This document shows, piece after piece, positions 4,933 through 53,000 of a stretch of 64,000 nucleotides of DNA. Location of the stretch: positions 1-64,000 of IMG/VR virus record IMGVR_UViG_3300025000_000067; one strand, written 5' to 3'. The notes below the pieces were generated by a model. That model searched no databases and had not been told where the DNA came from. It was given only the letters and a program-made list of their open reading frames with translations. The first letter of the stretch is position 1, and every line of letters starts with the position of its first letter. The DNA is from a virus. The position numbers and the translations under genes were made by a program.

Positions 4933-5104
4933 ATTACGTATGAGTTGGTACGTAATTTTCATATGCCATCGGTTTTTCTTTTGTGTTAAATTTTTTTTTT
5001 TTTTTTTTATTTTATGTTTTTAAAAAGTGTTAAAAATATTTTTAAAAGAGACACCCCCTATTTTCTGAAAAGTAATTGCGATTACGTACCAACTCATACG
5101 TAAC
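4933..5104. repeat. AT-rich element A bracketed by inverted ATTACGTA-N8-TACGTAA boxes (candidate origin or recombination site)
   Basis: 4933-4956 ATTACGTA-TGAGTTGG-TACGTAAT and 5081-5104 ATTACGTA-CCAACTCA-TACGTAAC flank a poly-T tract. Confidence 0.85.
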
Positions 5105-5287
5105 CTCCAATAGCCCGAATTTTTAATATTATAAATTACTAATGTATACTTCTTTTTGCCTATTCCCATTAAAAATACCTTGCATACTAAGGCTTATAGC
5201 GGTGTATACTAGCTATGAGTGGCTTCGGAAGCCATGCAGGAGGAGGCTATGTCCCCCAAAATAAACTACTAAAGGAGCTGTAAATTT

Positions 5288-6352
5288 ATGCCAAGGGTAT
5301 TAAAGGCAAAAAGAAGTGATATTAACCCCGTGCTGCTGGATCCTTCTATACATTGTAATCAAGAGTATATGAGTCCATCAGACTGTATTTATGAGGGCAT
5401 GGAGAGCATCACAACTGCAGGATATCCGAGTACAGAAGTTCATGAGCAGCCTATTGTAGAGGTTACCCAACTAGAGGTGAAGAAGGCCTTAAAGTTGCTC
5501 CAGACTAGGCAGAATGCTATCATGAGTGTGCTCTATAAGGCTCATGATGACTACAACCATAAGTACTTCCAAGGAAGGCTTTCAGTGCCTCTTATAACGA
5601 TTGAGAAGCTATCCCATAAGACGCTTGGTAGTTATATGGCAAATGCTGACTCTGCAGGTCTTGAGAATCATATAATACTCAATCGTAACTTTGTGGCCTT
5701 GAATACAGAGACTAGGATACTTGAAGCCCTTAAGCATCAGATGATTCATCAGTATCAGGATGAAGTTATCTATGAGAAGCACACTAAAGATGGCTTAATT
5801 CTTCATGAGGGTGAAAAACGTCCTAAGGCTTGGCATAACAAAGACTTTAAGAACTTGGCTATAAATATTGGCATAGCAGCTAAGGGCTCTAAATGTTACG
5901 GAAGTCCTGCTAAGATGCCTGAGCCTAAGAGCTATAATCGAAAGTTTGTGTGTAGGTGTGTAGCTTCTAACGGATATCCCCTGACAATATGGTCAACCCG
6001 GGAGATTAAAGCTACTTGCCAGGTGTGCAGCAGCTCATTTGTTGAGGTAAGTAAGGCCGGAGATGTTATACCTGTAGAAGCTAGTGATATTGAGGGTACA
6101 GGGCAGGATGCTATTGAGATCCGGATGAGGGGGGAGTTTTCTGTATTTGAGAAATTTAAGGATAAGCGTGCCCTAACGAGTAAGATAAAGGAGCTTAAGA
6201 AGTCGGGTACTAGGTACAAAGAAGGTATATACCAGAAAGGGCATAATTCCTGTCTTGCAGGGTATAGTTACTGGGTAGCCTTCGAGGATCGGATAACACC
6301 AGTGCCACCGCTAAGCAGACTAAGTAGGTTAAAGAGGGGAGCTGCAAAGTAA
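5288..6352 (+). CDS. SprT-like zinc metalloprotease-domain protein (HExxH altered to HQxxH)
   Basis: YNHKYFQGRL, LKHQMIH, WHNKDFK, C-terminal CxC..CxxC. Confidence 0.8.
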   Translation: MPRVLKAKRSDINPVLLDPSIHCNQEYMSPSDCIYEGMESITTAGYPSTEVHEQPIVEVTQLEVKKALKLLQTRQNAIMSVLYKAHDDYNHKYFQGRLSVPLITIEKLSHKTLGSYMANADSAGLENHIILNRNFVALNTETRILEALKHQMIHQYQDEVIYEKHTKDGLILHEGEKRPKAWHNKDFKNLAINIGIAAKGSKCYGSPAKMPEPKSYNRKFVCRCVASNGYPLTIWSTREIKATCQVCSSSFVEVSKAGDVIPVEASDIEGTGQDAIEIRMRGEFSVFEKFKDKRALTSKIKELKKSGTRYKEGIYQKGHNSCLAGYSYWVAFEDRITPVPPLSRLSRLKRGAAK

Positions 6353-6660
6353 TGTCTAGAGAAGAACTGTTGGCTAAGCTTAGTAATTCCAAGTTACGTA
6401 AAGTAAAAGCACGCATGGTTAGGGAGGCCCTAAAGACCGGGGCCTGTGACCGTGGTAACCATGCGGTTATTGCTAGTGAAGTAAACATTCGTTTCTTTTA
6501 CCGGGGTGTGGTAGTGGCCTGCATTTCAATTGATACACTAGCAGTTGATTATCCGCTCGTGGGAGAATATGAGCATACAGCGTCTACGTCTTATCATCGA
6601 AAGACTATAGGCGATGCCATAGGGGAGATACAAAGACTAATTGATAGGGAGGCATGCTAG
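6352..6660 (+). CDS. hypothetical protein
   Basis: translationally coupled ORF. Confidence 0.65.
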   Translation: MSREELLAKLSNSKLRKVKARMVREALKTGACDRGNHAVIASEVNIRFFYRGVVVACISIDTLAVDYPLVGEYEHTASTSYHRKTIGDAIGEIQRLIDREAC

Positions 6661-6927
6661 ATGGTAGCTTGTGAGGATGCAGAAGCACTAGATTTTGTTA
6701 ATGCCATGATACTCGTGAGTAAAGCACACGATGAACTCTTGAGAAGGCTATTTGGGGGTGTTCCTGTAAACGTTAAATTTCTAGCTGTATCTCGGGAGAA
6801 GTATACTGAAGTCATGCAAGATATTCAAAAAGAGTATGGCTTAGGTGAAGGTAGCCCTAATCATATGCTTTTCGTTTTTGAACAGCTCAGTCGATCACCA
6901 AGATTTGAGGAGGATGAAAGCCAATGA
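6661..6927 (+). CDS. hypothetical protein
   Basis: coupled ORF with GGAGG RBS. Confidence 0.65.
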   Translation: MVACEDAEALDFVNAMILVSKAHDELLRRLFGGVPVNVKFLAVSREKYTEVMQDIQKEYGLGEGSPNHMLFVFEQLSRSPRFEEDESQ

Positions 6928-7238
6928 GTGAAGCACAGCCACAGTGGGTAAAGTTATTCTTAGTACCACAAACTGATCATTTGAACAGCATGCCACCCTC
7001 CGTTATTGGGCTTCTCATAAAAGAAACACCAGGTAGCTATGTGCTTAACCCTATGCTTGAACCTACTGAAGACGAAGAAACCTATGATACAGTGTATATC
7101 TCAGCCGGCATGAACTTCGTCAACAAAACTTATGTATGGAGAAACCAGATACTAGAGTATAAGCCAGAAGTTGGGGTTATTGGCTCAAAGCTTCAGAAGA
7201 CAGAGTCCTACGATGAGAATAGTGGTGGGCTAGGTTAA
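6924..7238 (+). CDS. hypothetical protein
   Basis: ATGA overlap; terminator follows. Confidence 0.65.
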   Translation: MSEAQPQWVKLFLVPQTDHLNSMPPSVIGLLIKETPGSYVLNPMLEPTEDEETYDTVYISAGMNFVNKTYVWRNQILEYKPEVGVIGSKLQKTESYDENSGGLG

Positions 7239-7262
7239 AAGGCAGCTTAACGCTGCCTTTTT
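7238..7262 (+). terminator. rho-independent terminator
   Basis: GGCAGC-TTAAC-GCTGCC-TTTTT. Confidence 0.8.
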
Positions 7263-7315
7263 GGTAAATAAAGTTGTTCAAAGTTGTGTATACTTGTACC
7301 CTAAAATAGGTTACA

Positions 7316-7954
7316 ATGAGAAGACTAAAGGAGATGATTTTAGTGACTGAAAAAGAACATGTATCGTGGGTTAAAACACTAAAAGTAGGTGATGAGGTTT
7401 GCTATACAGTCGGTGGCTCACACATTGGCAGCAGGGGTGATACTAGGGTGGTACTGGTAAAAAAGGTAACCCCAACAGGCATGATTAGAGTTTCGGATGG
7501 TACGCTATTTAATACCCGGGGAAAAGCAAACAATGGGACGAGATGGATATTCTTAGAGGCTTTTAATGAAGTTAAGAAAGCGCAAGTAGCACGGGGGCAG
7601 ATAGTAGATAAAGCTGGTCATAGTGCTTATGTACTAAGCAGCAATAAGGTTAGCCTTTCAAAAGTCTCAAGTAGTCTTCTTCAGGAACTTGTTAACCTAG
7701 AAGCTAGGATATCTCTAAGTTTAAAAGAGCCTGCTGAGGAGACTGATGCCCAAAAGAAACTGTGTGGGTGTGGAAGAGAGTCCACGAAAGTATATACCGA
7801 TCCTCGGTTCGGTGGGACTTTGGATGTATGTGATGACTGCTATGATCTAAATGAATGTCAGGACCAGGGTCATGGTGTTACAGGTGAATCATACTCTATA
7901 GAAGAGTGCATTGAGATTTTGGAAGCTAGGGGATGGAAAAGTCACTATGACTAA
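7316..7954 (+). CDS. hypothetical protein (SH3-like beta-barrel N-terminus, Cys-rich C-terminus)
   Basis: LKVGDEV..VKKVTPTGMIRV; CGC..CDDC. Confidence 0.6.
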   Translation: MRRLKEMILVTEKEHVSWVKTLKVGDEVCYTVGGSHIGSRGDTRVVLVKKVTPTGMIRVSDGTLFNTRGKANNGTRWIFLEAFNEVKKAQVARGQIVDKAGHSAYVLSSNKVSLSKVSSSLLQELVNLEARISLSLKEPAEETDAQKKLCGCGRESTKVYTDPRFGGTLDVCDDCYDLNECQDQGHGVTGESYSIEECIEILEARGWKSHYD

Positions 7955-8048
7955 AAAACCATCCACTTTTTAAAAGTTCCTATGTATGATCCCAGTAAGG
8001 GGCGGGGCAGGAAGCCCCTAAAATAACTACTGTGAGGAGTGAAAACCT

Positions 8049-10031: not shown

Positions 10032-10047
10032 GGGGAGGTAACAACTA

Positions 10048-12859: not shown

Positions 12860-13582
12860 ATGTGTGCATTAAGAGCAACACGCCCAACAGCAGCCCCGGC
12901 AGCGGTAGTAAATCAGATCCCAACTGGTGTAGATCCAGCAGCAGCCCAAGCAGCAGCCCAAGCAGCAGCCCAAGCAGCAGCCCAAGCAGCACCTGACCCT
13001 GTAAATAACACCCCAGTAGTTCAAGGTAGTGGAGCGGTAGCAGTACCGGGGACAGTCCAAGACCTTAACGCCGGAATCCTTGATAACATTGAAGGTATGG
13101 GAAACACCGGAAACTTTGTTACCATGGATGGATCAGATTTTCTGTTCAAAGCAGATAACACAGTAACACAAAGCATTGAGTTAGTCGTTACTTATGGTAA
13201 GCGATACTATCAGTGGGTTGAGGAGCTTCCTGGTGGAGTTAACATTTATCATGACAGCGATGTTAAGCTTGATGATCGATACAAACTCAGGTTTAAAATG
13301 CACTGGTTAGAAGATGGGGCAGAGGCAGGCGACGAGCCTATCGAAATGCAGTTCCACCTACCGACTGCTTCAGCGATGCGCTTCATTGATTATGTAGGTC
13401 AACTGGCCAAGGCTGGTTTCGGAATTGGGAGTGTCGTCACTCAGGCTACCATTAGTCGCCAGATTCAGAACGGAACTACTAACCGTTACAGCCGTGCAGA
13501 GTTTACTATGATTGGCATCGTTAACCCAGATGGAACAACTAATACAGTGAACACGGGGATCACAACGGTTAATAAAAAGTAA
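12860..13582 (+). CDS. probable ssDNA-binding or replication accessory protein with AAAQ repeats
   Basis: strong RBS, beta-rich core, directly upstream of the primase-helicase; function inferred from position. Confidence 0.45.
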   Translation: MCALRATRPTAAPAAVVNQIPTGVDPAAAQAAAQAAAQAAAQAAPDPVNNTPVVQGSGAVAVPGTVQDLNAGILDNIEGMGNTGNFVTMDGSDFLFKADNTVTQSIELVVTYGKRYYQWVEELPGGVNIYHDSDVKLDDRYKLRFKMHWLEDGAEAGDEPIEMQFHLPTASAMRFIDYVGQLAKAGFGIGSVVTQATISRQIQNGTTNRYSRAEFTMIGIVNPDGTTNTVNTGITTVNKK

Positions 13583-13787: not shown

Positions 13788-16700
13788 ATGGCAAGAGAAG
13801 CTCGTAAGAAACGAGGTAAAGAAGAGGACAATCTTCTGAACTTCAAGTACGTGGATGTATTTTATCTTAACCCTCAGTCTGGGCAGCGGTCTAAATGGGT
13901 TCGCGTAGAGCAGGGACCCGCTGTAGAAGACTTCAGAAATAAACACGGGAATTACAACGTCTTTGCAACAATTCAAAGCTACCCGAACAGGATCAAGCGT
14001 GAAGGTGGCGGGGAGGAAATGTACGCCCCGCTGTTTTTTGATATCGATAGCTCTTGTTTGCTAGCTAGGGATTGTGCAGCAGACAAAGGTAAAAAGAACA
14101 AACCCGGGCTAATAGACATAGGAGCCTTGAGTAGGCATGATACAGATTCTTTGCAAGTAAGTGGCCTTCTACCTAAGGAACTTATAGCCCATATACTAAA
14201 TAATGACATGGGTATACCCCTATCAGATGAAGTTTGCCAAAAGATCAATGCAGAAGTTGATGCTAATCCGGACCTTAAGCGGTTAGTATGGCTTAAGAAC
14301 TTAGAGCAGAGCAGAATCGACGCTGTAAAAATCATTACTTTCTTTACTGAGCGCTTTGGCCTTACAGAAGATGAAGTTCGGGTGTATTTTAGTGGGTCTA
14401 AAGGGTTTCATATCTTAGTAAATCCCATTGTTTTAGGAATTAAACCAGATAAGAATCTCCATAGGTTTTTCAAGCTCATAGCTATGTACCTAATAACTCA
14501 ACTAGGGCTTAAGAGCCTAGACACGGGGTCTATCTATGGGCATGCTCGTATGCTTAGACTTGTTAACTCGACTCACCACAAGTCAGGCCTGTTTAAAGTT
14601 GAGCTCTACCATAGAGAGCTTAAAGGGGACTTGGAGCGCATTATAACGTTTCTGGCAAAGTCTCCTAGGGATGACTTCTACCCGCCTGACATACAGGAAC
14701 TTCAGTTGAATGATGCAGCTAATGAATGGTACTTAAAGAAGGTTCAAGAGTTCACAGAAGCCCTAAGGATGGAAGAACTATCTGCTACAGGTAGTAAAAG
14801 TGAAGTACTATCTAAAATGGAAAGTGTACCAGCCTGTGTGCAGTTTATTATGGAACGTGGCATTCTGAAGTCTGGGGATCGGAATAAGGCTACCATGGCT
14901 TTAGCTGCTTATGCTAAGGAAGTAGGAACCTCACAGAAAGAGACAGAGCGTACCTTGGTTGCTTGGGTTAAGAAGATACCAGCGTCCATGACATCTAGCT
15001 CATCCTCAGAAGCTGAAGCGTCAACTATATCCTGTGTTAAAACAGTCTACCAAGAGGATAAGTACCGATTTGGATGTGCTTACATTCGAAGTCTGCATGG
15101 TGATAAGTCAGGTAAAGACTACGAGGCTGTCCCTTGTGGTGGACGGAACTGTCCGGCGCATGAGGATCATGCCATAGACGCTGAACCCGCAGAGGAGATG
15201 CATCTTAGCCAGACTTCTAAAGCCGAGTTCACTGGGAAAAAAGTGTCCTTTAGTGCACTAGTAAGTGGTAAACTTGACACTCCATATATTGTACCTAAGA
15301 AGGTCCGGTTTTTATGCAGGAATTTTAAGTACTGTGATAAACCCTGTGTTATGCATGAATACGAAGGAACGTATGACCGAGAGTTCCATGAGAACGAGCG
15401 CTTCTTGATCGAGGCCACAAACCAAAATGACAACAACTTGAAGGGTGTACTTAGGGCCCATAGCGGAGCATCCTGCAATAAGCTGTCTTATGAAGTCCTA
15501 GAACATATCAACGTGTCAGAGCTTTTAGTGGTTCCCATGGCCGACCGGGTGAAGTCGGTTAAAACTTCAGAAGGTCAGTATCAAGATGTTGATGAGTCAG
15601 GCAATGAGTATGTAACCAGAAAGATGTATGCCATAGGTAATGACATCCAGGCAAATAGCCATTACCAAATTGAGGGCTATGTGTACAGCCATCCCCGTAA
15701 TGCTATGGCGACGATTCTTAGTCAAAAGCATGAACCTATGGAAGACAGTATTTCTAGTTTTGAGTTAACCGATGAAGTTAAAAAGTCCTTTGGGGTTTTT
15801 CAAGTTCAACAAGGTGAGACTTTGGATGACCGAATATCCTTTATTGTTGATGACTTAGTTGATAACGTAACCTTGGTGCGTGAAAGGTTCGCTCCTCATC
15901 TAGCTATACTAATGGTGTACCACAGCTGTCTGCACTACTACTTCCAAGGTAGTCTAGAGAAACGTGGCTGGATGGAGACTGTATTTGTTGGAGATAGTGG
16001 AATGGCCAAAACACAGATGGTGAATAACATCATGGAATTCTGTGGACTTGGAAACACAGCATCCGGTGAAGGAACAAGCCGTACTGGGTTAGTATACCGC
16101 TTAGAACAGCTTGGGGAGCGCTGGTTTATTACATGGGGTAAGTATCCTTTGTCTGATCGGAAGCTTATTGCTATTGATGAATTCTCAGAACTGGATCCTG
16201 AAGACTTCGGGAAAATTACAGAAGCCCGAACCACTGGGGTCTTAAGAGTAGACCGAACCGTGAACACTGAAACAAATGCCCGGGTTCGTCTGATACTCTT
16301 AACTAACCCAGTAAGAACGATGACCTTATCCAGATATACCCATGGAGTTGAGTCACTTCGCCCCCTTTTTGCTACCCCTGCAGATATCCGTCGTTTGGAC
16401 TTAGCAGTCTTTCTTCAATCCGGTGACGTTTCTAAATCAGTCCTTAATGCAGAGTACCCGGCTCCCGCAACTCAGGCAGTGTCTTCAGAAGCTCTCCGTA
16501 ACTCAATCTTATGGGCATGGAGCAGGAAACCACAGGATATTACCATTGGAAAACCAACAATGAAAAAGATTCTACAAAGGGCTGATGACCTAGCTACAAA
16601 GTACGGGGATGCTCAGGATATTCCCCTTATGGAGCCCGCCGACCTTCGAAAAAAGCTAGCCCGTATGTCCATAGCCTTAGCCTCCTTAGTTCATAGTACT

Positions 16701-17093
16701 GATGAAACACATGAGAAGATCATTGTACTCCCAGAGCATGTAGAGTACGTTGTGGACTTCCTAAGCGTTGTTTACGATGACAGAAACTGCCGTTTGGACC
16801 TTTACAGCGCTAAGTCAAAAGAGGAGTCGGACTTAACCGATGCAGAACGTGCTGAGGTAAAGAAGGCCTTGGAAGATTTAGACTTTGCTGACCATGCCTT
16901 AGCCTCTGCAGAACTTATTGATCTGTTCCGTAGAAATGACGTTCTGAAGCCCAATGAGATTGTGGATATGTTAGGATTTGAGAGGGCTCAAGTGAATACT
17001 CGTTTGGCCATCTTAACCAAGCATAGTATGATCAAGCGCACCCGAGACGGACTTAGAAAGTTACCGAAGTTTATAGAGTATTTGTTATTGTAA
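13788..17093 (+). CDS. AEP primase / PriCT / MCM-like AAA+ helicase fusion
   Basis: AEP motifs LFFDID and FSGSKGFHI; PriCT-like PACVQ..GDRNKA; Cys clusters; Walker A GDSGMAKT, Walker B IAIDE, Arg finger IRRLDL; C-terminal winged helix. Confidence 0.85.
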   Translation: MAREARKKRGKEEDNLLNFKYVDVFYLNPQSGQRSKWVRVEQGPAVEDFRNKHGNYNVFATIQSYPNRIKREGGGEEMYAPLFFDIDSSCLLARDCAADKGKKNKPGLIDIGALSRHDTDSLQVSGLLPKELIAHILNNDMGIPLSDEVCQKINAEVDANPDLKRLVWLKNLEQSRIDAVKIITFFTERFGLTEDEVRVYFSGSKGFHILVNPIVLGIKPDKNLHRFFKLIAMYLITQLGLKSLDTGSIYGHARMLRLVNSTHHKSGLFKVELYHRELKGDLERIITFLAKSPRDDFYPPDIQELQLNDAANEWYLKKVQEFTEALRMEELSATGSKSEVLSKMESVPACVQFIMERGILKSGDRNKATMALAAYAKEVGTSQKETERTLVAWVKKIPASMTSSSSSEAEASTISCVKTVYQEDKYRFGCAYIRSLHGDKSGKDYEAVPCGGRNCPAHEDHAIDAEPAEEMHLSQTSKAEFTGKKVSFSALVSGKLDTPYIVPKKVRFLCRNFKYCDKPCVMHEYEGTYDREFHENERFLIEATNQNDNNLKGVLRAHSGASCNKLSYEVLEHINVSELLVVPMADRVKSVKTSEGQYQDVDESGNEYVTRKMYAIGNDIQANSHYQIEGYVYSHPRNAMATILSQKHEPMEDSISSFELTDEVKKSFGVFQVQQGETLDDRISFIVDDLVDNVTLVRERFAPHLAILMVYHSCLHYYFQGSLEKRGWMETVFVGDSGMAKTQMVNNIMEFCGLGNTASGEGTSRTGLVYRLEQLGERWFITWGKYPLSDRKLIAIDEFSELDPEDFGKITEARTTGVLRVDRTVNTETNARVRLILLTNPVRTMTLSRYTHGVESLRPLFATPADIRRLDLAVFLQSGDVSKSVLNAEYPAPATQAVSSEALRNSILWAWSRKPQDITIGKPTMKKILQRADDLATKYGDAQDIPLMEPADLRKKLARMSIALASLVHSTDETHEKIIVLPEHVEYVVDFLSVVYDDRNCRLDLYSAKSKEESDLTDAERAEVKKALEDLDFADHALASAELIDLFRRNDVLKPNEIVDMLGFERAQVNTRLAILTKHSMIKRTRDGLRKLPKFIEYLLL

Positions 17094-17642: not shown

Positions 17643-17671
17643 TTGACATATTGTTCAAAGTTGTATAAACT
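17643..17671 (+). promoter_or_regulatory. sigma-A promoter with TTGTTCAAAGTTGTA operator in the spacer
   Basis: TTGACA-N17-TAAACT. Confidence 0.75.
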
Positions 17672-17729
17672 TGGATGTATAAAGTACCACTTGGTACGGT
17701 ACAATAAAGTGAAAAGTAGGTGATACCAA

Positions 17730-18104
17730 GTGAAAACCCCAGTTGAACTTCTGTCAGACTATCAGCGGAAAGTGAAGCTTATGATATCCCAGAAAATACC
17801 GCATAAGGATATCCAACCACTAGACCAGCGAGATATTATACTCTTCATGGCCTTACTCCATCCAACTGCTAAGCGGGAGTCTAAGGAGCTAACCAAGGAG
17901 CTGATAACATTCATTTGTGATCAAGGGATTATTACAGCTGAAGATATTTATGCAAAGTATAACTGGAGTGATAAACCAGTTATGCGACGTTTGAAGCTTT
18001 TTAGGGAGTTTGGCCTAATAAAGCGTGAGCAGAAAAAGTACTACATGCCAACCCCTAGGATGCTAGAACTTCGGAAGACTTATTTAGAAAGGGTGTGTAA
18101 ATAG
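17730..18104 (+). CDS. winged-helix DNA-binding protein
   Basis: ITAEDIYAKYNWSDKPVMRRLKLFREFGLIKRE..YMPT. Confidence 0.65.
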   Translation: MKTPVELLSDYQRKVKLMISQKIPHKDIQPLDQRDIILFMALLHPTAKRESKELTKELITFICDQGIITAEDIYAKYNWSDKPVMRRLKLFREFGLIKREQKKYYMPTPRMLELRKTYLERVCK

Positions 18105-31710: not shown

Positions 31711-31762
31711 AACAGAAAGAGCCCGTGGTTACCTCAGATGAGGGCCACAGGCTCTTTCTGTT
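31711..31762. terminator. hairpin copy 2; probable bidirectional terminator between convergent genes
   Basis: AACAGAAAGAGCCCGTGGTTACCTCAGATGAGGGCCACAGGCTCTTTCTGTT. Confidence 0.75.
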
Positions 31763-32642
31763 TACCATACCATATAGGCCCCAAGGGATCTTCTGAAGCC
31801 AATTCATTTGATGTAAAGAGCCACTGCAGGTCAGTATTGTCTATTCCATAGATAGCGTTCCTCAGCCTCAGAGCGCGGTCTAGGTTTGTCGTGACTGTTA
31901 GGATAAGGGGGAAGGTTCCATAGATCGATTCAAAGCTTTTAGAGGCATAGTAGGCTGTATAGCGCTGGTGTTTCCTTTGGAAGACCGGTAGGCTCATGGT
32001 TCCATTGTCTAATTCTAGGAAAAAGTGGATACCTTCATCTTCTGAAAACCAATACTGGCCATAAGCATCCGGATTACATACCATCTTCTTCCCCCAGAAG
32101 GTGAAACTATGTCGGGTATGGTTTTCTGTTCTGTACCCGGTAACTTCATGCTTATGTTTTCGAGCATTCCGGAGAAGTGAAATGTAGAAGTTATTGATGT
32201 CTACCATATGCTTAAGGTACGGAAGTCTTGTTTCGTTCATTTCATAGGACCATGATAGTTCTTCTACTTCTTGGTTAAGAAGTCCGGCTACAATCTTGGC
32301 ACCCAGTTTATCAAGGATAATATGGCCTTGGCTTGTTCCTTCATTCCCAATGTCTACAAAGAATCGGTCAACGAGTTGAGCATCAAAAAGTTTTCGGATC
32401 CTTCGTCTTGCAATAAGCTCTGATTGAGAGTTTTCAAGTCCTTTAGAGTTGTATCTGTAGTGCATTTCAGCTATTTGTCTGGTGGTTAAGCAGCGTTGAT
32501 AGTAGATAGATAACAGGACTTCTCTATCCCTTGGCGTTAACATAGGGTTCTGGTAAACTTCTCGTATTGACCGCTCAGTGTCCCCCTGTTTTCTGACGAA
32601 TTTATTAATCCTTCGTGAGGTAATTTGTCTAGTTTCTAGCAT
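31734..32642 (-). CDS. replication-relaxation family protein (Replic_Relax, relaxase-like)
   Basis: LTPRDREVL..LTTRQIA winged helix; H...IN; PDAY; FLELDNGTM; K...Y..Y. Confidence 0.9.
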   Translation of the reverse strand: MLETRQITSRRINKFVRKQGDTERSIREVYQNPMLTPRDREVLLSIYYQRCLTTRQIAEMHYRYNSKGLENSQSELIARRRIRKLFDAQLVDRFFVDIGNEGTSQGHIILDKLGAKIVAGLLNQEVEELSWSYEMNETRLPYLKHMVDINNFYISLLRNARKHKHEVTGYRTENHTRHSFTFWGKKMVCNPDAYGQYWFSEDEGIHFFLELDNGTMSLPVFQRKHQRYTAYYASKSFESIYGTFPLILTVTTNLDRALRLRNAIYGIDNTDLQWLFTSNELASEDPLGPIWYGKQKEPVALI

Positions 32643-32653
32643 ACCCTATCCTC

Positions 32654-35131
32654 CTACTTAACTCTCTGGATCTTACCTGTGGCCTTCCCAGTCTTTATAG
32701 AAGCACTCTGGTCTTCGGTAATCTGATTCTTTTGGATGGTACTATATCGGGCTTCTATGTCATCTTTTATTTCTGAGATATGCTTATAATTCCTAGTTTT
32801 ATAAGCATCTTTCCATTTCTTAACTTCAGCTAGCCCAACACTAGGAAAGTAGTCATCCATGTTAAGACAATCAAAAGTGAAAGGACTTGGGTGGATCTTT
32901 TTAAACCGTCCGTAGCCTGTATACTGAACCATAGATGTTAGGTCCTCTTCTGTAACTTCCGGCAGCATACGTTTGATTTTAGGTGCTGAAGATGTCCCTA
33001 TGAGTAGGCTCACTTGGGTGAAGGTGTTGTCTTCGATCATGCCCATAAGCTTAGCTGGGATCTGTTCAACGCTTTGATGGGCTAGGACTAAACCTAGGCC
33101 ATAGCTTCTGGCCATTTCTAAGAAACGCTGAATATCAGATTCTTGGTCGAGGAACATCTCAAATTCGTCTAAGATGGCCACATGGGGTATCCGTTTATCG
33201 ACTTCTGTATCCCCTCTACTAAATACCGCTTTACTGATAAAGGCAGTGAATAGGGTTCCGAAGAAGGAGATAATTTCGTTTTCGTTTTTGTCTAGCGCAA
33301 AGTTGACTATAATAATTGCTTTTTCGTCTAACATCTTTCTCCATTTATACAAGTTTGTCTTTTGACACATGCTATACCGCGGTAATTCATTTTGGGTAAT
33401 GACCTCAAGCTTATTAAGGATAGCTTTAGACTCTGCTTGGCGTGCTCTAATCTTCATGCCTTTGTAGCTTTGCCAGTAGCTTAGGACATCCGGAAATTCT
33501 GTGTCATCTTCCATCTTAGCTAGGGTCCAATCTAAATAATCTTCATCTGTGAACATGCGGTAGACTTCTAGTATAGATCCTTCAGGATTTGTGCTTATGA
33601 CTGCAATGAGGGCTCTTCTGAGGATGCTTTGACTGTGCTCCTTAATAGAACCCTCACTATTGAGTTTTAGGAAGACAGAGACGATCATAGTGGCCAGATT
33701 GTAGGTGCTCATACCAGGCTGTATCAGGAAATTAAGAGGTATAAACTGCGCTATGTCCTGAAGGTCAATGTAATGTACCCGGTGCCATTCACTTTTTGGA
33801 AGATGGGCCATTAGTTCATCGGCCACATCTCCTTTAACGTCAAAGAAGGTCAGACCACAGTGTCTTATAATTTGAAGTCCTAAGAACGATAGCCACCAGC
33901 TTTTTCCGCTACCTGTTCCACCAATGCAGTAGACATGTTGCATAAGCATTTTAATATCTTTAAAAGCTAGGTATTTTAGACGACCTCTAAAGTTTGATCT
34001 TCCGAAGACAATAGCTTGGTCTTTCCACGCTTCTTCAATGGTATTGTACTGATAGACTCCATCAGGTACAGGCATTTTTTTAGCCTGCAGTCGTATGATT
34101 CCTGGGATGTTCTTTGCTGGGAAATGGAGGATCGTTGCAAGCTCTGCTGGGGTAACATAGTTTTCAATAGGGTATGTATGAATTCTTCTTGCTGCATAGT
34201 CTTTCAAGAATTGACTTACCCCGTGTTGGTTAAATAATCTTAAATGTCTTTTATAGTATTTTTCTCGGTAGTCAGAGAAGGGTCTAAAACGATTTTTATC
34301 AGTGGCTGGTGCAAAGGAGCTAATAACTGTGGATAAGCGTGCTCGGGCTTTACCGAAGGCATTGTGGCTGCATACGAGACGTATTTCTAAGTCAAAATAA
34401 ATACCGGCTTCTAGTTTCTTTTGAATTGAGTTTAAACTGGTGTTATGGTCTTTTGATCCAGCATTGCCTGTGAGGGTATAGTGTATAGCTCCTAGTAATG
34501 CTTTGGGGGTTTTCATTAGTCCAGTCCATTTAGCATATGGGTAGTGCATGCGACTAGGTCGTTTACCTGTTTTTTTATATATTTCGTAGTGGCTATTGGC
34601 TATGACTAAGGCTCTATAGGGTACAGGTCTTAGGGTAAATTGAACCCATACTTCTTCTTCATCATCTAGGTTTTGCATGGAGGCGCATAAACTAGCTATC
34701 ATATCTGCTCCGATGCGTTCACCGTCTGACTGTAGAAGATTAAAGAGATAATGGCTGTCAAGTTCTAGCGTGGCACAGGCTACGTTTAAGGCATAGAGTC
34801 TTCCGAAGCGTCCGTAATCTTTTTTAGGTGTAATAATTTCTGCTGATTTGTGGATAGAGTTTATATTGCTCTGGATAAAATCTTTTTCTAGATTTTTTGA
34901 AAGCCAAGTGTATAGGTTAATACCTTTATTGGTTCCTTGGAACTCAAAGCTTAACCAGTCATAGGGTTTTTTAGGGTTATATATCGTATAGAGAGAATCA
35001 AATAGACTATTGTACTGAGATGGCTTAAATTCAGAATCTTTTTCAATGAGTATTTGGTATAGGTTCCCATTCTTAGATCCACTGCTTAAGCGTTTTCGGT
35101 GAATAGGGTACATTAGGCTTTTTATGATCAT
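32654..35131 (-). CDS. VirD4/TraD-like type IV coupling ATPase
   Basis: Walker A GGTGSGKS, FDVKGD, Walker B AILDEF, ARSYGLGLVLAHQSVEQI. Confidence 0.9.
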   Translation of the reverse strand: MIIKSLMYPIHRKRLSSGSKNGNLYQILIEKDSEFKPSQYNSLFDSLYTIYNPKKPYDWLSFEFQGTNKGINLYTWLSKNLEKDFIQSNINSIHKSAEIITPKKDYGRFGRLYALNVACATLELDSHYLFNLLQSDGERIGADMIASLCASMQNLDDEEEVWVQFTLRPVPYRALVIANSHYEIYKKTGKRPSRMHYPYAKWTGLMKTPKALLGAIHYTLTGNAGSKDHNTSLNSIQKKLEAGIYFDLEIRLVCSHNAFGKARARLSTVISSFAPATDKNRFRPFSDYREKYYKRHLRLFNQHGVSQFLKDYAARRIHTYPIENYVTPAELATILHFPAKNIPGIIRLQAKKMPVPDGVYQYNTIEEAWKDQAIVFGRSNFRGRLKYLAFKDIKMLMQHVYCIGGTGSGKSWWLSFLGLQIIRHCGLTFFDVKGDVADELMAHLPKSEWHRVHYIDLQDIAQFIPLNFLIQPGMSTYNLATMIVSVFLKLNSEGSIKEHSQSILRRALIAVISTNPEGSILEVYRMFTDEDYLDWTLAKMEDDTEFPDVLSYWQSYKGMKIRARQAESKAILNKLEVITQNELPRYSMCQKTNLYKWRKMLDEKAIIIVNFALDKNENEIISFFGTLFTAFISKAVFSRGDTEVDKRIPHVAILDEFEMFLDQESDIQRFLEMARSYGLGLVLAHQSVEQIPAKLMGMIEDNTFTQVSLLIGTSSAPKIKRMLPEVTEEDLTSMVQYTGYGRFKKIHPSPFTFDCLNMDDYFPSVGLAEVKKWKDAYKTRNYKHISEIKDDIEARYSTIQKNQITEDQSASIKTGKATGKIQRVK

Positions 35132-35367
35132 GCTGTCATACCACCTTTGACTGCTTCTTTAATAATATTCCATAGGAGCTGGCCAAGGTCTGTTATTGCT
35201 TGACCGGAGTGTAAGTAGAGTACTAACGCATCACGTTTTACTTGTAGGGCATAGATAACTAAATTACACATTTTAACTATAAAGATTAAGATTACACCAG
35301 TAAAAACACTACCGAAAGTTATCTTTAATATCCAAGATTCAATCTCGTTATGTGAAGGTATATGCAT
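35128..35367 (-). CDS. small membrane protein
   Basis: long hydrophobic segment; ATGA-coupled to the ATPase gene. Confidence 0.7.
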   Translation of the reverse strand: MHIPSHNEIESWILKITFGSVFTGVILIFIVKMCNLVIYALQVKRDALVLYLHSGQAITDLGQLLWNIIKEAVKGGMTA

Positions 35368-35376
35368 AATATCCTC

Positions 35377-35823
35377 CTAAACGCTAAGTAACGTTTTACA
35401 AGCAGCATAGATATCATTAAATAACCCAATAACTTCATAAAGTATAATTCCACCACCGACAAAGGCAACAAGAGGAATAACATCACCGCGTCCTGTAAAC
35501 TTTAAAAATGAACTTACAACTAAAGTAAAAAAGCCAACAACAAGCATATGGAGTAATATAGCTCCTTTCCCTCCCCAAAAACTTGTAGGTACGACTGTTC
35601 CTGATGTAACAGCTAGCGCTGGGTGCATAAAGTTAAAGAGAGCTGAACCAGGTAGTAGAATATTAAGAGTTGTAAAAGCTATACTAGGTGCTAAAGCAAC
35701 AGCTAGATTAACTATTTTTTGGTGTTTTTTGTACCAACGTATAAAACTTCGATTAATAAATACTAATTCAGAATCTAAATACTTTAATTCAGACAACTTT
35801 CCAATTACTTGTACTTTTTTCAT
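35377..35823 (-). CDS. membrane protein with C-terminal SpoIIIAC/AD-like domain
   Basis: ungapped register match of VG..L...GR.D....V...G...IL..V....ND.Y...K to the SpoIIIAC pattern (recalled, not searched); leader ends in ALA. Confidence 0.6.
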   Translation of the reverse strand: MKKVQVIGKLSELKYLDSELVFINRSFIRWYKKHQKIVNLAVALAPSIAFTTLNILLPGSALFNFMHPALAVTSGTVVPTSFWGGKGAILLHMLVVGFFTLVVSSFLKFTGRGDVIPLVAFVGGGIILYEVIGLFNDIYAACKTLLSV

Positions 35824-35945
35824 AAGACACTTCCTTTTTAGATATACTGTGGTGTATTTTTATGTTAAACATTAGATTTACATGCAAGTACCAATAAATT
35901 AAGAAATAGTATCTCAGGTATATCTTTATTGAATAATACAAAAAG

Positions 35946-35985
35946 AAATGCTAAGAAGCTTGCTGTCAGCGGTTTCTTAGCATTT
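35946..35985. terminator. hairpin upstream of the transfer operon (terminator or oriT candidate)
   Basis: AAATGCTAAGAAGC..GTTTCTTAGCATTT. Confidence 0.55.
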
Positions 35986-36080
35986 TTATATAGACTAGTT
36001 TATTTCTTTTTTCTATTTTTAATATTTAAATTTACAATTCTCAAAGTGAGGAGGATTTCTTTTTCTCTCTTTTCTTCTTC

Positions 36081-36425
36081 CTACCATATCTTTAGTTGAA
36101 ATCGTTGTTTCCTTGGAAACCAAGAAATCAACTTATCACTCAAAATATGAACAACAGCTCCTAAAGCTATAAACTCAAAAACTACTACACCAAACAATAA
36201 GAAAGGAAAAGCTAACAATAAAATACCAAATAAGCTATGACAATGCCCTCTGTGTTTCATCCATCGACTAAAAATATTATATCGACCCAATGTTGATGTT
36301 CGGAGATCAATATCAGGTAATAGACTTCCAAAAAGAATACAAAAAAACAATAAAGGACTTTGAACTATAAACAACCCAACTACTGATCCTATAATAAGAT
36401 GACCTAAAAAGTTGAATACAATCAC
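36081..36425 (-). CDS. YdjM-like membrane metal-dependent hydrolase
   Basis: GH, GSLLPDID, HRGHCHS, HILSD. Confidence 0.88.
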   Translation of the reverse strand: MIVFNFLGHLIIGSVVGLFIVQSPLLFFCILFGSLLPDIDLRTSTLGRYNIFSRWMKHRGHCHSLFGILLLAFPFLLFGVVVFEFIALGAVVHILSDKLISWFPRKQRFQLKIW

Positions 36426-36450
36426 CTTCTCTCTTTTAAGTTGATAAATA

Positions 36451-36480
36451 TAGTATGTTCAATTTCAAGTTCATCTATCC
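36451..36480 (-). promoter_or_regulatory. sigma-G-type (forespore) promoter
   Basis: on minus: GGATA-N18-CATACTA. Confidence 0.6.
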
Positions 36481-36489
36481 TACCAAATT

Positions 36490-36744
36490 TTAGAATTTAT
36501 TTTTATACAGAATATTAGCTTTTAAAGATCCCTCAGGCTGCTTTTTAACTGTAGGCTCTTCAGGTATTACCCAAGGTTCAGGAGTCTTAGGGACTTCTGG
36601 AATAGCCCTCATCACTGGCGACCCCTTCTCTATCTGCATAGCTTTACGGTAAACCTCTTTAAGTCGTCCGGTCTTATTCTTATACCGCTCCAAATCTCTT
36701 ATAATATCTGCATCATCTGTAGGATGTAACCTAAACCCAGCCAT
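36490..36744 (-). CDS. ParR-like RHH adaptor
   Basis: FRL..DDADII..LE...N.T..LKE.YR; immediately downstream of parM. Confidence 0.7.
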   Translation of the reverse strand: MAGFRLHPTDDADIIRDLERYKNKTGRLKEVYRKAMQIEKGSPVMRAIPEVPKTPEPWVIPEEPTVKKQPEGSLKANILYKNKF

Positions 36745-36752
36745 AGCTTAAA

Positions 36753-37730
36753 TCACCCCTCTGAGAGCTTAAGAAGCCCGTATTTCCGGTAACCATTAGC
36801 ATTTGCAAGCTCTGCATTATCCATAGTAAGGCAAGGTACACCTGTAAACTCAGTAATGTAGTCTGTATAAACATGAGCCCCACCACCACAAAGGATCACC
36901 GCTGAAAACCTTCTGAAGTCTGGTATATGAAGACTAAGCTCATCTTGTAGTGTAGGTAGCCTGACTTCAATAGCCTTTCTAACAAGTTCATGAACCTCTA
37001 CCTTTTTACCACCTAGCTTTAAAAGACCTGTACGTAAGACTCGATCCACTTCCATAGGCTGAGGTAAAAAACTAAATGAGTGTGAGATAAGCTTTCTAAG
37101 TTCTTTTTGTACTTCATGAACTCCTTCCCAGATAGTAAAGGAGTCCTGTGAGAAGGCACCTTCCTCCATTATGCATCCATCCGTTGACTTACCACCTATG
37201 TCAAGGATTAAGAGGTCTTCAGAAGCCAGCTCTGTGTTCCTCTCTTCCCCCTCAGCATCCAGTACAAAGTCAAAAAATGCCCCGGCAGACTGGGGAAGGA
37301 CTAAAGAATCATTGACTTTAACAAGGCGCTGCACAGCATTAAAGCCGAAGTTAAAACCCCCCTTTAACCGTTCAGCAAAAGCTAGCTTAGAAGCTTCACG
37401 CTTATACTCTTCAACCGGTAGGCCAGATACAAGTAAATCAATAATACTAACACCTGTAGATTCTTGGTAGAGTCCTAAAATTGTGAGTAACTTCGGTAGA
37501 TCCGATTCAGAGGACAACCGCTCAGACTTAAAATCAAAAGATCCTTTAGACCCTACGTTCCATGATCCCCCATGCTCCGTTGTAATAAGATATCCTTCTG
37601 AATCATTTAGATCTCCCATAATAACTTCTGAACGCCTTTTGCTAAGTGACGGGCAAGTATCATCCCAGTCTTTTCCTACCCCTTTAAGTTGGACAAAGCC
37701 AAGGTCAGCACCAACTACATTTTTCTTCAT
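36753..37730 (-). CDS. parM: ParM/StbA actin-like partitioning ATPase
   Basis: ADLGFVQLK, SGLP, PQSAGA, LDIGGKSTD, LCGGGA, ANANGY. Confidence 0.92.
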   Translation of the reverse strand: MKKNVVGADLGFVQLKGVGKDWDDTCPSLSKRRSEVIMGDLNDSEGYLITTEHGGSWNVGSKGSFDFKSERLSSESDLPKLLTILGLYQESTGVSIIDLLVSGLPVEEYKREASKLAFAERLKGGFNFGFNAVQRLVKVNDSLVLPQSAGAFFDFVLDAEGEERNTELASEDLLILDIGGKSTDGCIMEEGAFSQDSFTIWEGVHEVQKELRKLISHSFSFLPQPMEVDRVLRTGLLKLGGKKVEVHELVRKAIEVRLPTLQDELSLHIPDFRRFSAVILCGGGAHVYTDYITEFTGVPCLTMDNAELANANGYRKYGLLKLSEG

Positions 37731-39304: not shown

Positions 39305-39515
39305 GGGGAGTGGACCTAAGATGAAAAAAGGCGATTACGTAGAGACTCCTAGATTCTTGATGGTAAAAATTGAAAAGGTATTTCGTAAAATGGAGAGGGC
39401 TGTAAAAGAGGGGTATACTGAGCCAACTCATTACAGGAATTCAGATTATCACATTAGAGGTAAGTGCCTTGGTGAAAATCGGATGATCTTTGCAGCAGTT
39501 AAAAGAGAACTATAG
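39285..39515 (+). CDS. hypothetical protein (likely start 39321)
   Basis: MKKGDYVETPRF..GYTEPTHY. Confidence 0.6.
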   Translation: MNTFLSRGSGPKMKKGDYVETPRFLMVKIEKVFRKMERAVKEGYTEPTHYRNSDYHIRGKCLGENRMIFAAVKREL

Positions 39516-48920: not shown

Positions 48921-48935
48921 AGGAGTTGAATACCT

Positions 48936-50243: not shown

Positions 50244-50658
50244 TATTGAAGTACTCCGGTTCGGGTATAATGATGAACTGTATGCCGTTGTAGAGAAGCT
50301 GAAAGATGTGCATAAAGAGGATCCTACGTCACTACGCATCTTCGAAGTTGAGGGGGAAACTCGACCTCCTAAAGATCTATACATTTATGGATCGGCTAGT
50401 GTTCAGAAGCTCAGGGACTTCTTAAACAGCTTATACGAGCCAGCTAAACACACCAAGGATTGCTCCTGCATTGACTGCATCAATACATCAGCTATGCGAA
50501 TGCTGTTGCAGGAGGCAGTTAAGCTCTTTGAGGGGTTAGATCTTAACCGGGATAGGGCAAATTCTTGGATAGTTAATCTCAGTGAACATGGTCTGCTATA
50601 TGCTGATATTCTAAGGTTAAAAGGGTCCATAAGAGACTTACTAGAGCCCCAAGAATAG
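50233..50658 (+). CDS. hypothetical protein
   Basis: coupled ORF, terminator follows. Confidence 0.6.
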   Translation: MKTDIEVLRFGYNDELYAVVEKLKDVHKEDPTSLRIFEVEGETRPPKDLYIYGSASVQKLRDFLNSLYEPAKHTKDCSCIDCINTSAMRMLLQEAVKLFEGLDLNRDRANSWIVNLSEHGLLYADILRLKGSIRDLLEPQE

Positions 50659-50682
50659 GGGCTCTTTTCCTTTACTTAGTAT

Positions 50683-50868
50683 GTGGGCAAGCTTACTAAA
50701 ATAAAAGGAGTGGTTCGTACTATGCTAGAGGGTATCAGTGGAATAATTGAGGTCTTTGTTACAGTATTTAAAGATTCAAAATATTTTGTTAAATCATTCA
50801 CTATAGAGGATGTCTGGGGTGGCATAGCCCTAGTGACTGTGCTGTTCGTGCTAAGTATTTTACTATAA
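50683..50868 (+). CDS. small membrane protein (likely start 50721)
   Basis: C-terminal TM segment. Confidence 0.5.
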   Translation: MGKLTKIKGVVRTMLEGISGIIEVFVTVFKDSKYFVKSFTIEDVWGGIALVTVLFVLSILL

Positions 50869-50958
50869 ATACTTGTCTATATTTGTTCATCGTTGTATAC
50901 TACTTAACAGGGGGATTTTAGGAAGAACTAAAATTTTTAAAGGGATGGTGGACAAGCT

Positions 50959-52279
50959 ATGCCAGTTAAATATCCCAGGCCGGCAGCCGGAGCTGTTGCA
51001 GAACAAACGGATACCTATGTCAAGAAAGAGAAGCACCAAGTGGAATTAACTAAGAACCTACGGAAGCCTAGTGTCACTAAAGCTAAAGAGCCTGTAACTG
51101 ATTGGTTTATACTTCAGGCAGGTGATGACCCGGGTCCAGGAGATGGTACAGAATGGGTATGGAGAAATGACTTTAAGTCCATTCATAGGGGAACTAGAAA
51201 AGAGTGCTTGGATTATATAGTGACCTATAAGCGTAAGAACCCAAAGGATACAACTGAGATGTTCTTGGCCCATGGGTTAAAGGTGATCTAATAAAGAGGA
51301 AGAGGAGCTGGCGAATATGAAAGAGATGGATGTACTACTAGCACGAAAGCTGCTGATTACTCTAGGTGTACTTACTGAAGTCGATGAGCAGGAGAACGGT
51401 GAGATTATTGCTGTACTTACTGCTGAAGACATGGCTGCTTATGAGGATCTTGCTTCACAGGCTGCAGAGATTCGTAATTTAGAGAAGTTACTAAAAGAAC
51501 TTAAGGTTAAAATCAATACGAAAGTACTTGTGCATAATGCCCGTCGGGATATGTGGTGGAACTGCATAGAAATGCGACATGGAGTAACCAAAGAGCAGAG
51601 CACCACTGGATTGCACGTTGATAGGATAAACAATGCACTAAGAAAAGGTATACTGGCTGACAATACCTATGGAATTAATCGGACTTAAGTTAAGAAGAGG
51701 AGGAATTTATCCATGAGTAATACTATTGCAGTGAGTTCTTCAGATTACAAAGAATCAGGTTGTGTAAAGTGTGGTTGTGAGTACTGTTATGGACAGGGTA
51801 TAAGTGGTGGAGGCACGACACCTGTAGTATGTGGAGAGTGTGAGACACGATTTATTATCCTTGCAGAAGGCTTAACCAAGTCAAGGATAGGCTTTGGATC
51901 TGGGGATGGCCCCGCATCGTACCCTGAGCTACAAGCACACCCACGAAAAGGTACTCCTAATCATCCATATATAAGACCTGATGTAAAGCCAGAGGGTGGT
52001 GGTGAATACTGGGCACCACGGGGCGTAGGGTATGACCTATCGGGCTTCGTCAAATGTAAGGAGGCCGGGGAGCGTATTGTTAAAATGGTGGAAAAAGGCA
52101 TTGGAAGAACTCCCAAAACTTGGCTAGACTACAGACCATCGGAACCTAAATGGGTACAGGTAAAAGTTCAAGCTGTCGATGGGATTAACCTTGAAACGCT
52201 GTGTGATTTATGCAAAGATGGAATCATAACGGAGCAGAGGATAATTACATCCTTAACCATTGAAGCTCTGACTAAGTGA
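50959..52279 (+). CDS. three hypothetical genes (50959-51291, 51317-51688, 51713-52279)
   Basis: each with an RBS; promoter TTGTCT-N17-TATACT upstream; the last has CxxC pairs. Confidence 0.6.
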
Positions 52280-52788
52280 TCTTCTGAAGCCCTAGTGCCA
52301 CAAGGCATTGGGGCTTTTCCTATACCCGCTCAATGCCCTCTCATATATGCCTTTGACGAATGTTACATAATAAGCATATGTAACATTCAGGTTTAAGTGG
52401 GGGGTGCTCCTATACTCCTAGATGCCTCCTATAAATGGGCTAAAAATCCATGACAGAATACTCTGACAGGGTTTATGCAGTCGAGTGCATAATTATGCAT
52501 AGGTGTTTTCTTGCAATTCTTAGGAGCCTATAGTATAGTATAGGGATTTTTAAAATGGGGTGTTTTCATGTGAAAAGGAAAAATGTTACAAGTAGCTGTA
52601 ACCCTTGGTATCGCTGGGTTTGGGCATTTATTACAAAAGTATCCATGTAAAAAATTAGGATATTTTTAAGATGGGGTGAGAGGCTCAGAGAATTGGACTA
52701 ATGGTCTGACTATTGGTAAGACGAAATTGTAAATAAATGGAGCCAAAAATGGGGGCAAAATGAGGCCTTTTTGCCTTTTTGAAAAAAA

Positions 52789-53000
52789 TTTTCTCGATTA
52801 CGTACGAGTTGGTAAGTAATTATTAAAGACACAAAGAAAAAAGGGGTCTATAAAAAAAAAAAATGGTTTTTGTACCAATACTGCAAATTTGTTCATAGTT
52901 GTTCATAAAAAAGTGCACAAAAAAATAAAAAAAAAATTTGCAAAAAATAAAACGCTTGGCACCTGATAATTACGTATCAACTCGTACGTAATCGAGAAAA
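52789..53000. repeat. AT-rich element B; inverted homolog of element A
   Basis: 52797-52820 ATTACGTA-CGAGTTGG-TAAGTAAT and 52969-52992 ATTACGTA-TCAACTCG-TACGTAAT; ~32-bp inverted arms around poly-A tracts. Confidence 0.85.

Follow-up and report, generated by a model that had tools for sequence, protein, structure and literature searches.

The 102,131-bp genome of an uncultured phage (G0) carries two mirror-image copies of an element of roughly 170 to 200 bp, in which inverted 24-bp boxes flank an AT-rich core. Replication origins are the most likely reading of these elements, because the related genomes (G1 to G4 and fragments) all keep copies at the same two places, and from sequence we give about an even chance that they are phage-specific putative origin modules comparable to SPP1 oriL/oriR and to the origins of SaPIs. 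Support for this best-supported reading is circumstantial and comes from synteny, selection on the boxes, the AT-richness of the core, the insulated position between transcription units, and a mini-box operator. The observations themselves comprise the anatomy, conservation, and AT-richness of the elements, their concerted evolution, the flipping of spacers, the mini-box, and the absence of a recombinase. To our knowledge, no bacterial virus replicating with a BcMCM-family AEP primase-MCM fusion has a defined origin.

Anatomy of the elements

The consensus of the boxes is ATTACGTA-YGAGTTGR-TACGTAAT, i.e., inverted arms of 8 to 9 bp around an asymmetric spacer (Table 1). A search for ATTACGTA-N8-TACGTAAT allowing up to 2 mismatches returned exactly four matches (0.02 expected by chance; 0 of 100 shuffles reached four), which bore out the two inverted pairs reported in a preliminary description of this DNA, and the whole phage record was without further boxes. 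Boxes 4933 and 52969 matched perfectly, and boxes 5081 (last base C) and 52797 (TAAGTAAT) had 1 mismatch each. Read in the GAGTTG direction, the spacers of boxes 4933, 5081, 52797, and 52969 are TGAGTTGG, TGAGTTGG, CGAGTTGG, and CGAGTTGA, respectively; the central GAGTTG is the same in all four, the outer spacer bases vary, and the spacers converge within element A and within element B. The inverted repeats extend past the boxes, reaching 35 nt at 94% in B and 35 nt at 86% in A.

Table 1. Coordinates of the features in the window, i.e., the 64,000-nucleotide stretch of the phage record that was analyzed
Feature	Position	Strand	Remarks
Element A, box 1	4933..4956	+	ATTACGTA TGAGTTGG TACGTAAT
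Element A core	4957..5080	.	124 bp, 78% AT; T19 run; C-run (CACCCCC) near right end
Element A, box 2	5081..5104	-	Minus-strand reading GTTACGTA TGAGTTGG TACGTAAT
SprT-like gene	5288..6352	+	In all relatives, the first gene after element A
AEP primase-MCM fusion gene	13788..17093	+	BcMCM family
Core mini-box	17684..17697	+	GTAC-CACTTG-GTAC; ~10 nt past promoter motif of winged-helix gene
Winged-helix protein gene	17730..18104	+	124 aa; MarR/PadR/ArsR-like fold; candidate box binder
Element B, whole	52789..53000	.	Outer inverted repeat TTTTCTCG / CGAGAAAA; arms 35 nt, 94% complementary
Element B, box 1	52797..52820	+	ATTACGTA CGAGTTGG TAAGTAAT
Element B core	52821..52968	.	148 bp, 75% AT; homologous to A core when inverted
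Element B, box 2	52969..52992	-	Minus-strand reading ATTACGTA CGAGTTGA TACGTAAT
Small terminase-like HTH gene	53302..54123	+	In all relatives, the first gene after element B

The cores stand out from a genome background of 57% AT. No 100-bp segment of the 102-kb genome is richer in AT than the A core (rank 1), the site-B core ranks first in G1, and across genomes the element cores rank among the most AT-rich segments. Global alignment of the A core with the B core scored 89 in inverted orientation versus 33 in the same orientation and 29 ± 6 after shuffling, and the homology of the inverted cores claimed in the preliminary description was thus upheld. The B core is ~35 bp longer than in any relative outside its own lineage.

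Both elements sit between transcription units, with a terminator-like hairpin before B and promoter motifs after both; no strong promoter was found inside them. On the circular map, A and B lie nearly opposite each other, 48 kb apart.

Conservation in related phages

An element was found at two sites in five complete related genomes and in many fragments, at site A upstream of the SprT/replication block and at site B always ~300 to 500 bp upstream of the small terminase gene. These sites were syntenic in 5 of 5 complete genomes, between which the proteins flanking the elements are mostly 40 to 55% identical, and G0 and G1 were collinear over their full length. One lineage (G1 and L024) carries a third copy, at a new position between genes (site C), which in G0 is just a 20-bp gap.

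Between relatives, the boxes were 80 to 85% identical, so that the conservation in relatives that the preliminary description had called for was present, whereas identities of cores and flanks (55 to 61%) equaled the shuffled baseline. The boxes are under purifying selection while the DNA around them is saturated. Box-to-box spacing was 133 to 148 bp, with the exception of element B in the lineage of G0 (172 to 173 bp). Copies inside one genome were far more alike than same-site copies of different genomes; i.e., the copies show concerted evolution by homogenization within the genome. The orientation of the spacers flipped between relatives, and all four combinations were present among 21 elements, 7 of which had their two boxes in direct orientation. 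Elements A and B were opposite in polarity in G0, G2, and G3.

A candidate box-binding protein

The winged-helix gene neighbors the primase-MCM gene, which it directly abuts in G4. A mini-box was identified at its promoter in four genomes (G0, G1, G2, and G3), reading GTAC-N6-(G/A)TAC at the equivalent position in G1, G2, and G3, and this placement is the pattern expected of an autoregulated initiator. The protein was modeled with a pLDDT of 90, and the predicted structure resembles dimeric operator-binding MarR/PadR/ArsR proteins. A fold search returned generic matches of the MarR/PadR/ArsR type only, all tied, with centromere-binding TubR and AspA tying with repressors.

The C-terminal tail of the primase-MCM fusion is strongly conserved and gave sub-threshold winged-helix matches (Phage_rep_O, E = 0.017; MarR_2, E = 0.019); the AlphaFold model of this C terminus is of low confidence (pLDDT about 40). 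A search for more distant relatives of the fusion returned the same clade only. Element A, the nearest element, ends 8.7 kb upstream of the start of the primase-MCM gene, and 35.7 kb separate the end of that gene from element B farther downstream.

Searches for recombinases, initiators, and further copies

The preliminary description had called for a genome search for a recombinase or an initiator. Neither tyrosine (PF00589) nor serine (PF00239) recombinases were matched in G0 or G1 (controls positive), nor was Orc1/Cdc6 (PF09079, Cdc6_C; archaeal controls positive). A DnaD-like organizer profile gave no match, and no transposase-type recombinase was found among the families searched. The skew analysis called for at the same time did not support origins at these positions: in G0 and G1, GC and AT skew were without a step at the elements and simply tracked gene direction.

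GenBank phages had no megablast match to the 5-kb flanks, and a distant blastn of the element against phages and plasmids gave chance-level matches only. No copies of the element were present in GenBank phages and plasmids or in the genomes of 185,579 bacterial and archaeal species, the latter containing one isolated single box. Isolated single boxes that strict scans picked up in bacterial genomes and metagenomes were dismissed as chance matches, having no related proteins nearby. No Rfam family scored above its gathering score; a miRNA-precursor model, for example, reached 39 of 211 bits, a sub-threshold match that arose because the element forms a long hairpin. The closest characterized MCM is carried by Bacillus prophage phBC6A51, in which one gap was inspected; this gap, upstream of the MCM gene, was not AT-rich and was without inverted boxes.

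Proposed model of origin function

Each element would be a cis-acting platform for protein assembly and an origin at which the primase-MCM replisome encoded by the phage starts. Roughly 80 to 100 bp of the most easily melted DNA of the genome are enclosed by two inverted ends of ~55 bp; from the outside inward, each end has a GGGAAAnCGC-type motif, the 24-bp box, and an CGATGTCACAC-type motif. The dyad-symmetric boxes would be bound by a phage-encoded dimeric winged-helix protein, for which the product of 17730-18104 is the candidate, possibly joined by the conserved C-terminal tail of the primase-MCM fusion. Binding on both flanks might then melt the core and allow two helicase hexamers to load, as in SaPI Rep origins. 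Protein binding, melting, helicase loading, and origin activity are the parts of the model that we infer. The two or three copies per genome may act like SPP1 oriL/oriR, with either all of them firing or one firing while another, protein-bound copy stalls forks and thereby brings about the switch to concatemer synthesis.

The finding of no other initiator type (Orc1/Cdc6 or DnaD-like organizer) counts for origins. Against them count the skew without a step at the elements, the distance of the primase-MCM gene, which is not adjacent as in SaPIs, and the inspected phBC6A51 gap without a comparable element. The spacers, moreover, are conserved in sequence yet free in orientation, a combination that standard origin models do not predict. 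The constant place of site B upstream of the small terminase gene leaves room for a packaging-related role. Of the earlier proposal of archaeal-type origins serving the primase-MCM helicase, the assignment to this replisome is the part that stands as best supported, on circumstantial grounds; the archaeal likeness is architectural only, since no Orc1/Cdc6 is encoded, the MCM gene is 8.7 kb away, and the spacer orientation is not fixed.

Alternative explanations

The same winged-helix protein could occupy the elements without initiating replication, making them boundary, silencer, regulatory, centromere-like, DNA-condensing, or packaging-related sites, which we consider rather unlikely. The promoter mini-box shows that a box can serve as operator, matches of the winged-helix fold to centromere-binding proteins are tied with those to repressors, site B always lies close to the small terminase gene, and the phage genome includes ParM, VirD4-like, and Replic_Relax genes, which require cis sites. 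Sites A and C, however, are not close to packaging or partition genes (the ParM operon is ~15 to 32 kb from either element), additional internal pac or cos sites would harm the genome, and a simple operator needs no AT-rich, length-constrained core between inverted boxes. Such a core would also be unnecessary for polar fork barriers of the Ter/RTP kind, or for the fork-stalling partner of an origin elsewhere, at which a winged-helix dimer on inverted sites would stop forks and lead to concatemer formation. In Bacillus subtilis, the ~120-aa winged-helix protein RTP controls its own expression and binds Ter sites that occur as inverted pairs close to its gene. This parallel and the opposite polarity of A and B kept in G0, G2, and G3 are in favor of a barrier, as is SPP1 oriR, which is proposed to stall forks through bound gp38 (PMC6316719, PMC3485210). 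We nevertheless judge it improbable, as no other origin candidate was found; the winged-helix protein had no Pfam match to RTP, nor was RTP among its best fold matches, an absence that is inconclusive as evidence against a barrier. It is also doubtful, if slightly less so, that the boxes act as extruded hairpins or cruciforms, with the spacer flips as the record of hairpins formed in vivo and the inverted A and B as a built-in switch from theta to concatemer-producing replication, in which the conversion would follow from arrest of a fork at one copy or from recombination of one copy with the other, much as in a 2-micron plasmid without a dedicated recombinase or in SPP1 oriR. Covariation of the box-arm hairpin was 0.191 versus 0.077 after shuffling, with many mismatched cells at variable positions, and does not tell base pairing apart from binding by a dimer.

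Mobility would account for other features. The terminal inverted repeats are long (about 35 to 55 bp), the element is without coding capacity, a third copy was gained in the lineage of G1 and L024, and orthologous copies differ much more than copies sharing a genome, all as in a MITE-like miniature inverted-repeat element copying itself within these phage genomes. That the elements are of this kind is very unlikely: all five genomes have A and B at syntenic positions, the boxes are evidently selected amid saturated DNA, no target-site duplication was visible at site C, no transposase-type recombinase was found among the families searched, and the collections of genomes, GenBank phages, and plasmids held no copies beyond the lone box. 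Least probable, in our estimate, are the lox/FRT-like recombinase targets put forward in the preliminary description, at which recombination would flip the core or the 48-kb segment or turn dimers into monomers. The arms of 8 to 9 bp around an asymmetric spacer with the same central 6 bp in 4 of 4 boxes, and the mutually inverted A and B nearly opposite on the circular map, are as expected of such sites, and several assemblies break within an element. Inverted repeats by themselves suffice to explain the contig breaks, however; G0 and G1, which are collinear, lack a tyrosine or serine recombinase (a host Xer enzyme may act instead), boxes in direct orientation would excise the core and yet persist in 7 of 21 elements, and recombination between boxes cannot yield spacer flips. 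Boundaries of long direct terminal repeats were also considered, given the SPO1-like terminase, and were dropped with A and B 48 kb apart and three copies in G1.

Comparison with known systems

SPP1 oriL/oriR are likewise two distant homologous origin-type modules, each combining recurrent initiator boxes with an AT-rich unwinding region. In SPP1, the second copy lies in the late region, bracketed by transcription signals as the elements here are (PMC6316719), and is a proposed fork barrier triggering concatemer synthesis (PMC6316719, PMC3485210). SPP1 differs in its direct repeats and DnaB-type helicase with a loader, in place of palindromic inverted boxes and a primase-MCM fusion; its origins have no sequence similarity to the elements, which reach three copies in one lineage. 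In SaPIs, the C-terminal winged helix of Rep binds oppositely pointing repeats that flank an AT-rich region, and loading of two hexamers has been proposed (PMC9371898). SaPI Rep/PriRep and the phage have in common a primase fused to or paired with a replicative helicase, but in SaPIs the ori directly follows rep and has iterons of 5 to 6 bp, in contrast to 24-bp boxes and a helicase gene 8.7 kb from the nearest element; in the phage, the stronger candidate for box binding is a winged-helix protein separate from the helicase. The element offers tests of helicase recruitment a concrete target of 170 to 200 bp with a candidate binding protein, and its natural variants (arm changes, spacer variants, and flipped spacers) are material for studying how such helicases are recruited. 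The conserved twin inverted layout and the homogenization within genomes are also relevant to the way in which large phages that encode their own replisome change over to making concatemers.

Archaeal ORB/mini-ORB origins share the inverted boxes around an AT-rich unwinding element at which an MCM helicase is loaded; they differ in their Orc1/Cdc6, box sequence, fixed polarity, and adjacent initiator gene. LoxP, FRT, and dif share the inverted arms and asymmetric spacer of 6 to 8 bp; the elements differ in their short arms, the lack of a recombinase, boxes in all relative orientations, and G0 and G1 without rearrangement. Membership in neither the lox-like nor the archaeal ORB family is supported. 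Herpes simplex virus differs in infecting eukaryotes and in using UL9, an SF2 helicase; its origins have no sequence relation to the elements. Its oriS/oriL are palindromic, with an AT-rich center between inverted boxes for the origin-binding helicase; several origin copies are present, some of them mutually inverted, and hairpins of the boxes are implicated in activation.

Two inverted box pairs in a tailed phage

The source of the window is a tailed phage of about 100 kb with plasmid-like features. The preliminary description had claimed four copies of a 24-bp box (palindromic arms around an asymmetric 8-bp spacer, YGAGTTGR), and all four were indeed present (chance expectation, 0.02), inverted to each other within element A and within element B; a scan of the complete 102,131-bp virus record (G0), in which the window occupies bases 1-64000, yielded no further boxes. 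The inverted repeat extends past the boxes (35 nt; 94% in element B and 86% in element A), and each whole element is predicted to form a long hairpin folding much better than shuffled sequence (z, −5.7 to −11.8). The proposed homology of the A and B cores in inverted orientation was also borne out, with alignment scores of 89 inverted versus 33 direct (shuffled, 29 ± 6). In an array of small early genes, the left half of the box was partly matched at 39331-39351 (GCGATTACGTAGAGACTCCTA); with >6 mismatches, this is no full box.

Positions of features in the window and in related sequences
Feature	Sequence	Position	Remark
Element A boxes	window	4933..4956 (+), 5081..5104 (−)	
Element B boxes	window	52797..52820 (+), 52969..52992 (−)	
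HU/IHF-type DNA-binding protein	window	2799-3107	Bac_DNA_binding, E=3e-31
12-bp tandem repeat	window	12937-12996	
AEP primase-MCM fusion	window	13788-17093	replication/repair gene
Plasmid-like block	window	31734-37730	minus strand; actin-like ParM, VirD4/TraG-like ATPase, Replic_Relax protein
Small terminase gene	window	53302	
Large terminase gene	window	56471	
Promoter-type motif	window	7256, 17633, 27271, 43666, 53161	
Solitary palindromes	G1	33632, 46723	
Solitary palindrome	G3	18914	
Site C element	G1	89197-89354	one lineage only
Site C element	L024	1941-2102	one lineage only
Assembly break	G2	1-215, 106513-106642	contig ends
Assembly break	G5	80132-80258	end
Assembly break	L053	start	

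Element A is flanked by the end of a lysis/HU block and by the SprT/replication block. Element B is preceded by a terminator-like hairpin and followed by the terminase operon promoter. The HU/IHF-type gene, 1.8 kb upstream of element A and conserved in G1, encodes a protein that could bend the A-tract-rich cores. The primase-MCM shares 38 to 39% identity with its counterpart in Bacillus prophage phBC6A51, from which BcMCM derives; BcMCM has helicase, primase and polymerase activities (PMC3273815). Further replication and repair genes encode a family A polymerase, an SNF2 helicase, an SprT-like protein, ThyX, RuvC and dUTPase. The large terminase is ~32% identical to SPO1-type terminases. Immediately upstream of the primase-MCM gene, a 240-aa gene without a family match contains a 12-bp tandem repeat (AGCAGCAGCCCA).

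Conservation and copying of the elements

Four more complete genomes (G1, IMGVR_UViG_3300042934_000426; G2, IMGVR_UViG_3300046615_000177; G3, IMGVR_UViG_3300000205_000001; G4, IMGVR_UViG_3300005281_000001) and many fragments were recovered by pattern scans and protein-anchored searches. Along their full length, G0 and G1 are collinear, at ~50% protein identity, and both elements are kept in close relatives: an element was present upstream of the SprT gene (site A) and upstream of the small terminase gene (site B) in every genome, adjoining the same flanking genes in G2 to G4, and the mutual inversion of A and B is conserved in G0, G2 and G3. Nothing similar was found in GenBank phages or plasmids, and the remaining single-box matches (one bacterial genome and metagenome contigs) had no related proteins in their vicinity and appear to be chance occurrences.

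Between orthologous elements, boxes were 80 to 85% identical whereas cores and 100-bp flanks (55 to 61%) equaled the shuffled baseline, indicating purifying selection on the boxes. Box-to-box spacing was 133 to 148 bp, the sole exception being element B of the window's lineage (172 to 173 bp). From outside to inside, each element end carries a GGGAAAnCGC-type motif, the box and an A(C/G)T(C/G)GATGTCACAC-type motif, and the functional ends would thus span ~55 bp. In AT content, the cores rank near the top of all windows in their genomes; the A core is first in G0 and the site-B core in G1.

The spacer core A-G-T was invariant across 42 boxes. When the flanking genes were used to orient the elements, the spacers showed all four combinations of direction, most commonly convergent (10/21), followed by direct (7/21) and then divergent. 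Variant-specific spacers, such as CGAGTTGA, retained their identity on reversal, so the flips are true inversions. The arms vary symmetrically (ATTACGTA, ATTCCGTA, ATTCAGTA, and ATTAGGAA with its partner TTCCTAAT); their covariation exceeds that of shuffled controls, yet is imperfect, and is compatible with either a dimeric protein or hairpin extrusion.

In G1 and fragment L024, the giant head-protein gene and the gene after it are separated by a third element (site C); G0 has just a 20-bp gap there. Its core aligns best with that of site A in the same genome (score, 141 inverted), and the element was thus copied within that genome. Aligned in inverted orientation, the A core and the B core of a single genome scored 154 (G2) and 156 (G3), and site-A cores compared between genomes about 60; judged by these alignments, copies inside one genome are homogenized. 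Together with the gain of site C, this shows that an element is able to undergo copying or conversion within one genome.

Assemblies were broken within the AT-rich core at site A in G2, where the two contig ends share an overlap of ~115 bp and then diverge, and at site B in G5 and L053. These breaks may be an assembly effect of inverted repeats and homopolymer runs, or may reflect real population heterogeneity.

Candidate functions

An origin-type module is the best-supported reading, and we consider its chances about even. The winged-helix protein of the replication module, which we infer to be the initiator, would recognize dyad-symmetric boxes on both sides of a conserved, insulated, AT-cored element. 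Its model (pLDDT 90) comprises a MarR/PadR/ArsR-type winged helix and a C-terminal helix and looks like a dimeric operator binder. A core mini-box, GTAC-N6-(G/A)TAC, lies shortly after the promoter of its gene (17730 in the window) in G0, G1, G2 and G3; the G2 copy matches exactly the 14 nt at the center of a true element box. In G4, the gene lacks a separate promoter and abuts the primase-MCM gene directly. The two closest mechanistic analogues are SaPI origins, in which a self-loading helicase uses its winged helix to recognize oppositely pointing repeats on either side of an AT-rich region (PMC9371898), and the SPP1 oriL/oriR pair, whose second copy, in the late region, has transcription signals on both sides and is proposed to stall forks, triggering concatemer synthesis (PMC6316719, PMC3485210).

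The preliminary description had likened the elements to archaeal dual origins; the origin part is the reading favored above, and membership in the ORB class was rejected, as no Orc1/Cdc6 is encoded in G0 or G1 and box polarity is variable. Skew analysis, suggested as a check, gave the origin reading no support. Lox-like recombination, the other function proposed, was weakened by a search of the complete G0 and G1 genomes that found no tyrosine or serine recombinase genes, by the persistence of direct-orientation elements and by G0-G1 collinearity. Against a MITE-like mobile element stand the syntenic positions, the purifying selection on boxes and the lack of target-site duplications or copies elsewhere. 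Element B may have a packaging-related function, as this element constantly adjoins the terminase gene.

A promoter-type motif (TTGTTCAAAGTTGTATAAA) is repeated upstream of plus-strand operons, and a TTGACA hexamer precedes it at 17644. The AAGTTG conserved within it is similar to GAGTTG of the box spacer, and the B core contains a comparable stretch (about 52873-52900). In G1 and G3, the leaders of two operons, one of them that of the winged-helix gene, carry solitary palindromes that resemble the box (CGTAC-N6-GTACG type), immediately after the repeated motif.
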